64,000 bases of DNA, taken from NCBI GenBank assembly GCA_038087875.1, contig CM075991.1, positions 7,876,001-7,940,000 on the forward strand. The letters are read 5' to 3'. Shown here piece by piece: positions 20,466 through 54,790 of the stretch. The notes under the pieces were generated by a model. The model had not been told where the DNA came from. It saw only the letters and a program-made list of their open reading frames with translations, and did not search any database. The number at the start of each line of letters is the position of its first letter. Position 1 is the stretch's first letter. Both the position numbers and the translations under genes were made by a program. Origin of the DNA: Malacoraja senta (Eukaryota).

Positions 20466-21052
20466 GGCATGGAAACAGGCCCTTCGGCCCACCGAGTCCA
20501 TGCCGACCAGCCATCTCTAACCTGCGTACACTAGGGACAATTTTACACCTTATCGAAGCCAATTAACCCACAAATCTGCACGTCTTTGGAATGTGGGAGC
20601 ACCCGAACAGATCACCTCCAGATCCAGCGACCATTTCTTCCCAGCTGTTGTCAGGCTATGGAACTGGAGACCTGTCCTGAGCTACTATCAACATAATAGG
20701 AGACCATCGGACTATCGTTGATCCAACTTTATCTTGCACTATTCCCTTTATCCTGCATCTGTACACTGTGAACGGCTCGATTGTAATCATGTACGGTCTT
20801 TCTGCTGAATGCTTCGCATGCAACACAAGCTTTTCATAAGGTCATAAGTGATTGGAGCAAAATTAGGCCATTCGGCTCACCAAGTCTACTCCGCCATTCA
20901 ATCATGGCTGATCTATCTCTCCCTCCCAACCCCATTCTCCCGTAAACCCACGCGGCTATTAGGAAGAACATACAAACTCCTAATTGCTCGATTTGCTGAC
21001 GGGATCAGTGATTGACTATACCGCATGGGGCAATTGTCACTGCTGGGATGCT

Positions 21053-21184
21053 TCTTCTTGCGTATGGCGTGCACAGCCTAAAGTTGTAAGACAACTTGTT
21101 CTGTTTGATCTTGCTTGTGCACGCCAGGTTGATTGCAGTCGTCGAAATAGGGTGGACCACGTGAAGGTTGCAATCTCCCACCCC
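21053..21184 (-). mobile_element. ribozyme-headed mini-SINE, copy 1 (core partly mutated)
   Basis: TSD tgctgggatgct/tgctgtgatgct; (AAG)n tail; HDV-like head at 21131-21184. Confidence 0.8.
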
Positions 21185-37981: not shown

Positions 37982-38357
37982 AACAACAATTTTTTTGAAT
38001 CTAAATGTATAGATGTATATGTGTGTGGGTGTATATATATATATATATAAAATTTATATACACTTTTTTATTTATAACTATATTTATATATATATGTGTG
38101 TGTGGATATGCATGTACATATACATATATAAGTTGTGTTGGAAAAAAGAGGACAGATTTCTGGAGTAAATCAGTGGGGCAGGCTTCATCTCTGGAGAACA
38201 TGGATAGGTGACGTTTTGGATCAAGACCCTTCTTCAGACTCAAGTGAAGTTGGTTAGATCGCAGATCCATCTGCCCTGTCACACGTGAAGGATCCCATCA
38301 AGCGTTTAGAAAGTAGAACTGGGCCAACATTTATCTTAGCATAAAACAGCAACAACT

Positions 38358-39085
38358 CTGTCCTTGTGTGTGACAGTGTGTGCATGCATGTGTCCTTGTG
38401 TGTGTACAGTGTGTGCATGCATGTGTCCATGTGTGTACAGTGTGTGCATGCATGTGTCCTTGTGTGTACAGTGTGTGCATGCATGTGTCCTTGTGTGTGA
38501 CAGTGTGTGCATGCATGTGTCCTTGTGTGTGACAGTGTGTGCATGCATGTGTCCTTGTTGTACAGTGTGCATGCATGTGTCCTTGTGTGTACAGTGTGTG
38601 CATGCATGTGTTCATGTGTGTGACAGTGTGTGCATGCATGTGTCCTTGTGTGTACAGTGTGCATGCATGTGTCCTTGTGTGTACAGTGTGTGCATGCATG
38701 TGTCCATGTGTGTGACAGTGTGTGCATGCATGTGTCCTTGTGTGTGACAGTGTGTGCATGCATGTGTCCTTGTGTGTACAGTGTGTGCATGCATGTGTCC
38801 TTGTGTGTACAGTATGTGCATGCATGTGTCCTTGTGTGTGATAGTGTGTGCATGCATGTGTCCTTGTGTGTACAGTGTGTGCATGCATGTGTCCTTGTGT
38901 GTACAGTGTGTGCATGCATGTGCATCCTTGTGTGTGACAGTGTGTGCATGCATGTGTCCTTGTGTGTGTACAGTGTGTGCATGCATGTGTCCTTGTGTGT
39001 GACAGTGTGTGCATGCATGTGTCCTTGTGTGTGACCAGTGTGTGCATGCATGTGCAAGTGGGTGCACCTTGTGTGCATGTGTACA
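38358..39085. repeat. minisatellite, ~28-32-bp unit gtccttgtgtgt(g)acagtgtgtgcatgcatgt
   Basis: more than 20 visible tandem units. Confidence 0.95.
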
Positions 39086-39224
39086 CTCATCAAGGGGCAG
39101 CAAGCCTGGACTGTAATAGTCCTGAACCTCGTTGCCAATGGATCAGGACCTGGCACTGCCACGCCTGTATGGTAACCCCATGCGCCATGTTCACTTGGGT
39201 AAAAATAATCCATGGACAGACACC

Positions 39225-39555
39225 AGCGCACAATGGTGTGGCGGTAGAGTTGCTGCCTCACTGCGCCAGAGACACGGGTTCGATGCTGACTAATGGTGCT
39301 GTCTGTATGGAGTTTGTACGTTCTCCCCGTGACCGCATGGGCTTTCTCCGGCTTTCTCCGGGCTTTCTCCGGGTGCTCCGGTTTCCTCCCACACCCCACA
39401 GACATGCAGGATTGCAGGTTGATTGGCTTCTGTGACATTGTCCTAGTGTGTAGGATAGAACTGGTGTACCGGTGATCGCTGGTTGGCATGGGACTCGGTG
39501 GGCTGAAGGGCCTGTTTCCCCGCAGTATTTCTAAACTAAAACTAAACTACACTAA
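39225..39555 (+). mobile_element. HE1/V-SINE-like SINE
   Basis: consensus features; internal triplicated ggctttctcc. Confidence 0.85.
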
Positions 39556-41514: not shown

Positions 41515-41661
41515 TTCTTCTTCTGTCTTCTTCTTCCGTGTGGCGTGCACAGCCTAAAGTTGTTGGGCAACTTGTTCTATTTGATCTTCGTTTGTGCATG
41601 TCGAGTTGATTGCATTAGTCGAAACAGGGCGGACCACGTGAAGGTTGCAATCATCCACCCC
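41515..41661 (-). mobile_element. ribozyme-headed mini-SINE, copy 3
   Basis: TSD gcgaaatctcctc/gcaaaatctcctc; (AAG)n tail. Confidence 0.8.
41607..41661 (-). ncRNA. minimal HDV/CPEB3-like ribozyme (predicted)
   Basis: GGGGTGG-A-TGATTGCA-ACC-TTCACGT-GGT-CCGCCCT-GT-TTCGA-CTAA-TGCAATCA. Confidence 0.7.
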
Positions 41662-53811: not shown

Positions 53812-54247
53812 CTTTGGCTTATACTCGCTAGAATTTAGGAGATTGAGAGGGGATCTTATAGAAACGTACAAAATTCTTATGGGGTTGGACAGGCTAGATG
53901 CAGGAAGATTGTTCCCGATGTTGGGGAAGTCCAGGACAAGGGGTCACAGCTTAAGGATAAGGGGGAAATCCTTTAAGACCGAGATGAGGAAAAACTTTTT
54001 CACACAGAGAGTGGTGAATCTCTGGAACTCTCTGCCACAGAGGGTAGTCGAGGCCAGTTCATTGGCTATATTTAAGAGGGAGTTAGATGTGGCCCTTGTG
54101 GCTAAAGGGATCAGGGGGTATGGAGAGAAGGCAGGTACGGGATACTGAGTTGGATGATCAGCCATGATCATATTGAATGGCGGTGCAGGCTCGAAGGGCC
54201 GAATGGCCTACTCCTGCACCTATTTTCTATGTATCTATGTATCTATG
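53812..54247 (+). mobile_element. CR1 LINE 3' end (young)
   Basis: GLYSLEFRRLRGDLIETYKILMGLDRL...; nearly identical to the 49170 copy. Confidence 0.9.
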
Positions 54248-54306
54248 TCACTGTCTTAACTCTTTAAATGGCGTCCGATTATGTACACGTTGAAAGATCC
54301 TAATAT

Positions 54307-54444
54307 CTTCTTCTTGCGTATGGCGTGCACAGCCTAAAGTTGTAGGACAACCTGTTCTATTTGTTCTTATTTGATTGTGCACGCCAGGTTGATTGCATTC
54401 GTTGAAACAGGGTGGACCACGTGAAGGTTGCAATCTCCCACCCC
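54307..54444 (-). mobile_element. ribozyme-headed mini-SINE, copy 4 (best preserved)
   Basis: perfect 10-bp TSD atcctaatat (54297-54306 / 54445-54454); (AAG)n tail. Confidence 0.85.
54391..54444 (-). ncRNA. minimal HDV/CPEB3-like ribozyme (predicted)
   Basis: GGGGTGG-GA-GATTGCA-ACC-TTCACGT-GGT-CCACCCT-GT-TTCAA-CGAA-TGCAATC. Confidence 0.75.
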
Positions 54445-54499
54445 ATCCTAATATGACACATCATAAAGAATAATTTGTTTCATCAGAGTATCCAAATTA

Positions 54500-54790
54500 A
54501 GGCGTGCAGTGGCGCAGCGGTAAAGCTCCTGCCTTACAGGGCATGCGGCGCCAGAGACCCGGGTTCGATCCTGACTACGGGTGCTGTCTGTACATAGTTT
54601 GTACGTTCTCCCCGTGACCACGTGGGTTTTCTCCGAGATCTTCAGTTTCCTCCCACACTCCAAAGACGTACAGGTTTGTGTCAGGTTTAATTGGCTTGAT
54701 ATAAGTGTAATTTGTCCCTAGTGTGTGTAGGGTAGCATTAATGTGTGGGGATCGCTGGTCGGGAAGGACTCTAATCTACACTAAACTAAA
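54500..54790 (+). mobile_element. HE1/V-SINE-like SINE
   Basis: consensus features. Confidence 0.85.

Follow-up and report, generated by a model that had tools for sequence, protein, structure and literature searches.

A 138-nt retroposon with a putative P4-less CPEB3-type ribozyme head in Malacoraja senta

The placement of a self-cleaving ribozyme of the class named after that of hepatitis delta virus (HDV-like) at the 5' end of retroposons without long terminal repeats (non-LTR elements), and of their non-autonomous derivatives, is already known: RTE, Baggins, R2 and L1Tc are described as carrying such a ribozyme at their extreme 5' end, with homology running from the cleavage site (PMC6765202). 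In this work we examine a stretch of 64,000 nt from Malacoraja senta (GenBank assembly GCA_038087875.1, contig CM075991.1, positions 7,876,001 to 7,940,000 of the forward strand; hereafter the window), which holds on its minus strand, at 54444-54307, a 138-nt retroposon copy bounded by a perfect 10-bp direct repeat and referred to below as the short interspersed element (SINE). We consider it probable that this element is a non-autonomous non-LTR retroposon whose first 54 nt constitute a minimal CPEB3-type HDV-like ribozyme without the P4 helix, and that it multiplies by the cycle proposed below.

Described systems and the anatomy of the SINE

Several described systems resemble the element in part. 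With the heads of RTE, Baggins, R2 and L1Tc it shares the position of the ribozyme at the extreme 5' end, and an RTE-like long interspersed element (LINE) that we find in the same genome fits that class as well; what differs is that the LINE head is of CPEB3 type (64 bits to the Rfam model RF00622) and that the commonest carrier is the 138-nt non-coding element. The short internally deleted elements (SIDEs) of R2 and the trypanosome element NARTc are reported to be short and non-autonomous, and to retain an HDV-like ribozyme at the 5' end together with a 3' end that a LINE makes use of (PMC3414825, PMC3383444). The SINE is likewise a short non-autonomous element with a 5' HDV-like head, but it lacks P4, is dispersed with target-site duplications (TSDs) of variable length rather than being specific to ribosomal DNA, and is no internal deletion of the LINE that we found. 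Natural P4-less "minimal" HDV-like ribozymes are reported to exist and to self-cleave in vitro, the first database matches given for them lying in phage genomes only, beside tRNAs (PMC10879173); these minimal or theta ribozymes of gut phages also do without the P4 domain and are of similar size, whereas the SINE head is found in thousands of copies in a 1.94-Gb eukaryotic genome and has CPEB3-type core residues. The Sm-alpha elements of schistosomes are described as SINE-like, transcribed by RNA polymerase III (Pol III) and arranged in tandem arrays (PMC6765202), and they too join a SINE-like retroposon to a self-cleaving ribozyme, in their case a hammerhead. Last, the mammalian CPEB3 ribozyme has the same 7-bp P1 starting GGGG, and most of its core recurs in the SINE head as detailed below; it differs in its P2 and P3 sequences, in possessing a P4 where the SINE has a 5-nt linker, and in being a single intronic locus rather than the head of a multi-copy retroposon.

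The minus strand of the head, 54444-54391, reads GGGGTGG GA GATTGCA ACC TTCACGT GGT CCACCCT GT TTCAA CGAA TGCAATC, and its sequence, its coordinates and its P1, P2 and P3 pairings are as an earlier note on this DNA had described them. The features of the element are as follows.

54307..54444, minus strand: full retroposon copy; other copies in the genome are 97-98% identical over the full length
54391..54444, minus strand: predicted 54-nt P4-less HDV/CPEB3-type ribozyme head with G1 at 54444, recognised by a descriptor match and by covariation with related heads
54438..54444, minus strand: 5' strand of P1, GGGGTGG, pairing with 54409-54415 (P1 pairs 5-7 covary); predicted cleavage site 5' of 54444
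54409..54415, minus strand: 3' strand of P1, CCACCCT (family majority CCGCCCT); A or G at 54413 both pair with U5
54429..54435, minus strand: 5' strand of P2, GATTGCA, the perfect complement of 54391-54397
54391..54397, minus strand: 3' strand of P2, TGCAATC, pairing with 54429-54435 and covarying across families
54416..54428, minus strand: P3 (ACC/GGT) around L3 TTCACGT, which corresponds to U20-U26 of CPEB3; two of the three P3 pairs covary
54402..54408, minus strand: J1/4 GT (P1.1 partners of C22 and U21) and the 5-nt linker TTCAA in place of P4
54398..54401, minus strand: J4/2 CGAA with the putative catalytic C (C44) at 54401; fits the published CRRA rule and corresponds to C57-A60 of CPEB3
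54321..54386, minus strand: 3' domain, an 11-bp stem TGGCGTGCACA/TGTGCACGCCA around a 7-bp hairpin (from folding); a presumed recognition module for the reverse transcriptase
54307..54315, minus strand: (AAG)3 tail
54445..54454, minus strand: 5' TSD ATATTAGGAT, abutting G1
54297..54306, minus strand: 3' TSD ATATTAGGAT

The predicted ribozyme fold and its relatives

The pairings of the head comprise a 7-bp P1 that includes G1.U36, a perfect 7-bp P2, a 3-bp P3 and the P1.1 pair C22-G37. Nested folding finds P1, P3, the 11-bp 3' stem and its inner hairpin and leaves both P2 strands free. A published descriptor of HDV-like ribozymes is given as G1-Y, a conserved U..CG in L3, P1.1 and a J4/2 of CRRA (PMC6326823), and the SINE head has G1.U36, U20, C24, G25 and C44 G45 A46 A47 in these places. 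When a generic HDV-like descriptor (G1.U, a 7-bp P1, a 5-8-bp P2, a 3-bp P3, a 7-nt L3 and J4/2 C-N-R-A) was run over the window it matched SINE copies only, two of the three full ones, and nothing in 20 dinucleotide shuffles; the remaining full copy escapes it because its J4/2 reads CGAC. Over 295 kb of other genome loci all 40 matches were SINE heads. The correspondence with CPEB3 is closer than a descriptor captures. For that ribozyme the pairs G1.U36 and U20.G25, an L3 of U20 U21 C22 A23 C24 G25 U26, a P1.1 made up of C22-G37 and U21.U38, and a J4/2 of four nucleotides (C57 G58 A59 A60) have been described (PMC4836649; bioRxiv 10.1101/2022.09.22.508989), and all of these residues, including the whole of L3 (UUCACGU) and of J4/2 (CGAA), are present in the SINE head. 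The numbering is identical from G1 up to U38, also against the Rfam consensus, and the match of L3, GU and CGAA to CPEB3 seen in the earlier note is thereby borne out residue for residue. As a review counts only six nucleotides as invariant across HDV-like ribozymes (PMC8256844), this likeness exceeds what membership of the class imposes. Nor does the absence of P4 exclude membership, because the described minimal members are without it as well.

Further evidence comes from the comparison of related heads. Thirteen of them, from four to five families (three of the SINE, three of the LINE, one LINE variant, three of a second P4-less family and three older copies), were aligned with MAFFT and examined for the double pseudoknot of P1, P2, P3, P1.1 and P4. 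Standard pairs fill 92.7% of 288 cells against 73.0% in shuffled alignments, a level reached by none of 500 shuffles, and 36-44% in slid controls; the structure itself comes from the same 13 sequences, and the presence of related rows raises the shuffle value, a weakness of which the slid control is free. Both sides have changed in 18 of the 26 pairs, including six of seven in P2 and two of three in P3. The unpaired core is constant, with T20, T21, C22, C24, T26, T38, C44, A46 and T48 invariant throughout, and the pair at the end of the linker is U-A in the six P4-less heads and C-G in the seven P4-bearing ones. Taken together, the descriptor and covariation results exclude a chance origin of the fold for practical purposes. 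Furthermore, the two P4-less lineages, the SINE and the second family, differ from one another in P1, P2 and P3 and yet have kept their pairing, which suggests that the P4-less form has been under selection in the source elements.

The relatives were recovered by searching the whole genome with RF00622 at its gathering threshold of 35 bits. Thirty-nine of the 60 matches listed lie above this cut-off and the top score is 64.2 bits (E = 2.7e-14), whereas not one of 14 control genomes yielded a match that passes it. The best matches, which head the LINE and score 47-64 bits, measure 73 nt and include a P4 of 7-8 bp, none of the matches scoring above them. They stand near the Rfam consensus even inside helices, in P2, in P3 and at the base of P4, and homology between their copies starts at G1. 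The second P4-less family, of about 165 nt with an AAG-type tail, has 770 heads in the genome (at most 3 mismatches) and reaches 37-44 bits; in its three aligned copies the place of G1 is taken by T instead of G, and their P1 reads as 6 bp (GGGGYC/GGCCCC). Comparison with the Rfam models thus had a split outcome, in that the P4-bearing LINE heads and the second P4-less family pass the RF00622 threshold and the SINE head does not. The remaining relatives are listed with the second family.

C13:8595960-8596175; C2:95332758-95332975; C6:36061464-36061680: copies of the second P4-less family, RF00622 matches
C10:9303858-9304080; C9:29403192-29403420; C470:16259-16485; C1:380487050-380487147: older, decayed P4-bearing CPEB3-type ribozymes, P4 5-7 bp, 46-51 bits
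C19:3349240-3349345: variant of the LINE head, with P3 GCA/UGC and J4/2 CUAA

The sequence downstream of the older copies differs from the LINE, and further ribozyme-headed families therefore probably exist. The J4/2 CUAA of the LINE-head variant is shared with a SINE subfamily represented in the window by the copy with G1 at 41661; as it occurs in both families, the second J4/2 position appears to be free in SINE and LINE heads alike.

Insertion, mobilisation and rival explanations

The 1.94-Gb assembly was searched with a 32-nt head pattern and a 32-nt tail pattern, allowing at most 2 mismatches in each, and yielded 8,275 heads and 8,924 tails (0 with reversed patterns), in agreement with the prediction of very many copies in the genome; the two counts indicate that most copies are full length. 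Sixty-one complete copies, from loci of which 30 had been picked as the best full-length matches and 60 for internal variants, were inspected for their ends. A TSD of at least 7 nt ends exactly at G1 in 52 of them and is offset by 1-2 nt in a further eight, one copy being unclear, so that the clustering of 5' ends at G1 on which the earlier note had staked its reading is found in 60 of 61 copies to within 2 nt. The TSDs measure 6-16 nt (mode 12) and the tails carry 1-7 AAG units. Variable TSDs, a simple-repeat tail and dispersal over many contigs are the marks of a non-LTR retroposon inserted by target-primed reverse transcription. Among 55 target sites T stands at -2 and -1 in 56-58% and A at +1 and +2 in 44-45%, a pattern that suggests a nick by an apurinic/apyrimidinic (AP)-type endonuclease followed by annealing of the tail. 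Contigs from four runs labelled as four different organisms contain hundreds to thousands of SINE pieces, which stop at two common boundaries, 54305-54309 and 54444-54445, though as contigs they do not mark where an RNA begins or finishes; the 15,034 pieces of one such run (X19) divide by likeness into 2,382 at 99% or above, 5,203 at 95-99%, 6,061 at 90-95% and 1,388 below 90%.

A composite repeat that includes SINE-like parts was also seen at about 20 loci. Its tandem unit of about 125 nt has at its end an incomplete SINE-like head, reaching as far as GGTC; the final unit is joined to a truncated SINE body, after which comes C/T-rich satellite. At one locus (L091) it sits in a 2.6-kb repeat whose two copies are 89% identical. 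GATTGGA and TCCAATC in the tandem unit look like a covarying P2, but the change is not consistent from unit to unit and the unit fails the descriptor; it was not counted as evidence.

The earlier note had proposed a search for an autonomous LINE with the 3' tail of the SINE, and an RTE-like LINE with an (AAG)n tail and a CPEB3-type head does exist in this genome. It is about 3.14 kb long and consists of the ribozyme, an open reading frame (ORF) for endonuclease and reverse transcriptase in an RTE-like layout, and the tail. The ORF begins 30 nt after the ribozyme, its N-terminus matching the endonuclease family PF03372 (E = 3.6e-5), and its database homologues are of about 995 aa with PF03372, PF14529 and PF00078. 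In one copy, the sequence 3.1 kb downstream of the head encodes a peptide for which a 995-aa homologue gives an alignment over its residues 948-987 (E = 8e-14). This C-terminal frame runs into ...GACACGAAAAGAAGAAGAAGAGG and the (AAG)n tail, and both ends of that copy are flanked by the 11-nt TSD ACAGAACAAAA. The RTE clade is described as having a single endonuclease and reverse-transcriptase ORF and an extremely short, simple-repeat 3' untranslated region (PMC2887409), a layout that the LINE appears to share; it is called RTE-like here by its layout and the domains of its homologues rather than by a tree. A census with at most 3 mismatches in each pattern found 212 tails and 19 heads, with a head-to-tail spacing of about 3.1 kb at five loci. 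At least 100 of the 32-nt tails match the pattern without any mismatch, pointing to activity of the LINE in the recent past.

Given these observations, it is reasonable to postulate the following cycle. A copy lying inside any host transcript would be co-transcribed, by RNA polymerase II in the reading of the earlier note, its head would fold into the double pseudoknot of P1, P2, P3 and P1.1, and C44 (54401) would catalyse cleavage 5' of G1, so that the released RNA would start exactly at G1. At T-rich/A-rich nicks a LINE reverse transcriptase would then engage the 3' stem-loop and the (AAG)n tail and carry out target-primed reverse transcription, giving rise to TSDs of 7-16 bp. The most likely source of the enzyme would be the RTE-like LINE with its full CPEB3-type head and (AAG)n end. 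There is precedent in promoter-less RTE and Baggins elements, for which a review describes release from a co-transcript by the ribozyme, the review also stating that some SINEs use HDV-like ribozymes (PMC6765202). The partnership of LINE and SINE is the weakest step of the explanation, and what speaks for it is circumstantial: a common AAG tail unit, a TSD of 11 nt in the LINE against a mode of 12 in the SINE, a common class of ribozyme, and apparently recent activity of both.

A number of results weigh against this account. In place of the P4 helix that characterises HDV-like ribozymes the head has a 5-nt linker, and with P4 missing its activity could be low. Rfam gave 0 matches over the whole window at gathering thresholds, and in 54200-54560 with E up to 10 no Rfam model, those of HDV and CPEB3 included, matched the SINE head. 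The energies of nested folding are unremarkable, their z-scores being -1.17 for the whole element and +0.29 for the head. The covariation that the earlier note anticipated among copies holds across the 13 related heads, and within the SINE family no independent covariation was found. Common variants there fall at three places only: the G of CGAA, and the two positions at which the family majority differs from the 54444 copy, namely the linker (TTCGA) and the 3' strand of P1 (CCGCCCT, which still pairs, U5.G). A further P1 3'-strand variant, TTCCCCC, entertained as a compensatory change, occurs in two copies with an unchanged 5' strand and reflects decay. With regard to mobilisation, all that SINE and LINE have in common is the (AAG)n tail with some 5 nt preceding it, their bodies being similar at shuffle level only, and genome pattern searches found no repeat with a near-identical SINE head or 3' end. 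For a LINE with the SINE head and different bases after it there were 61 matches, and inspection of 30 of these showed SINE copies that carry small deletions inside or are interrupted; the 40 matches to the SINE body were truncated or deleted SINE copies and the composite repeat, and the 38 to the last 28 nt had unrelated sequence upstream. Formation of the SINE 3' end and the drive behind its transcription are also left unexplained by the proposed cycle.

Some of these points bear on who mobilises the SINE. If the head were a genuine self-cleaving ribozyme served by a LINE other than the RTE-like one, or by a LINE now extinct, then the scant sequence in common, the disparity between 212 LINE tails and 8,924 SINE tails, and the failure of the SINE body or its last 28 nt to recur under other upstream sequence in any one element (the 40 and 38 matches being heterogeneous) would all be accommodated. 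We hold this to be unlikely, since in 360 kb of sequence biased to SINE loci 65 of 74 runs of (AAG)3 or longer belong to SINE tails, with no further repeat family ending in (AAG)n, and since the RTE-like LINE has the tail unit, the ribozyme class, the TSD length and the exact tails noted above. A derivation of the SINE from this LINE by internal deletion, in the manner of a SIDE, seems to us very improbable. An HDV-like head and an (AAG)n tail in both elements do reproduce the layout described for R2 SIDEs (PMC3414825), and to that extent the analogy drawn in the earlier note stands; all three head helices differ in sequence between the two, however, and beyond AAGAAGAAG the SINE body is unlike the 5' or 3' regions of the LINE, since, out of 300 shuffles each, 49 attained the observed alignment score with the 3' region and 171 with the 5' region. 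As the body shows no further similarity, the SINE is not a SIDE of that LINE and the analogy is a loose one.

Other points bear on whether the head cleaves at all. It could descend from the LINE ribozyme or imitate it and be catalytically dead, retained as a structural or protein-binding 5' module, with G1 marking a transcription start, by Pol III or otherwise. The missing P4 and the missing Rfam match are what one would expect in that event, a fixed start site in any SINE would equally give uniform 5' ends, and binding of the R2 protein to a pseudoknot inside its own 5' ribozyme region has been reported (PMC6765202). A dead head strikes us as improbable, and slightly more so than a different LINE. 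No Pol III promoter is apparent, as the earlier note had held: the best match to box A in the SINE has 3 mismatches and the best to box B 4, ARAGORN finds no tRNA and Rfam no Pol III RNA in it, and the internal promoter of a classical SINE is accordingly not recognisable. The head retains every residue that the published descriptor fixes, among them the catalytic C, G1.U and U20..C24 G25, and the two P4-less lineages have preserved pairing while their helices diverged; P4-less HDV-like ribozymes are, moreover, reported to be active in vitro (PMC10879173). A minimal ribozyme that releases the SINE from host transcripts, with the RTE-like LINE supplying the enzyme, is therefore the explanation that we favour.

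Other copies in the window and the relation to the CPEB3 ribozyme

Three further copies lie in the window, making four as the earlier note had counted, and in all three full copies (21184, 41661 and 54444) G1 abuts the TSD, as it had also stated.

21051..21184, minus strand: second full copy, G1 at 21184; TSD CATC(A/C)CAGCA abuts G1; J4/2 decayed to CGAC
41515..41661, minus strand: third full copy, G1 at 41661; TSD GAGGAGATTT(T/C)GC abuts G1; J4/2 CTAA
39608..39704, minus strand: fourth copy, inverted at its 5' end, where 39704-39678 corresponds to element nt ~37-63 in reverse complement; TSD CTTAGGCA

The inversion in the fourth copy looks like the outcome expected of twin priming, a mechanism known from the L1 literature. 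Over the whole genome, 8,924 tails in 1.94 Gb amount to about one copy per 218 kb, against four in the 64 kb of the window, all of them on the minus strand; this may reflect an enrichment of the region or, inside a host gene, an effect of orientation. A stop-free frame of 430 codons (38254-39546, minus strand) adjoins the 5'-inverted copy, and several long frames, none with a Pfam family, overlap there on both strands, possibly as low-complexity or repeat sequence. No Pfam family was found on the 13 longest of the 80 window ORFs of at least 110 aa, from which it follows that the window itself holds no LINE ORF. Directly upstream of the SINE at 54444, on the minus strand, lies a G+C-rich stretch (54499-54560, gggtctctggcgcc...gccactgcacgcc) that resembles part of another interspersed repeat; its sole Rfam match, to ybhL at 14 bits, is at chance level.

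With respect to what is already described, three features appear to be new: a eukaryotic retroposon that carries the P4-less form in some 8,000-9,000 copies, the CPEB3-type identity of the LINE and SINE heads, and the presence of P4-bearing and P4-less relatives together in one genome. We found no published description of these features, and it may be that Dfam or Repbase already list both elements as repeats. A wider reading, which we advance tentatively and regard as open to considerable doubt, is that the mammalian CPEB3 ribozyme is a domesticated head from this RTE-type LINE/SINE ribozyme lineage and did not arise in isolation, and that the 54-nt P4-less form is active, selected and responsible for driving thousands of insertions. 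It is prompted by the LINE heads, which reach 64 bits to the Rfam CPEB3 model and share primary sequence with it in P2, P3 and the base of P4. In any case, the related heads with and without P4 in one genome amount to a natural covariation series for the CPEB3 fold, and, with a CPEB3-type sequence found at the head of an RTE-like LINE, the question of where the mammalian CPEB3 ribozyme came from can be put to a direct test.
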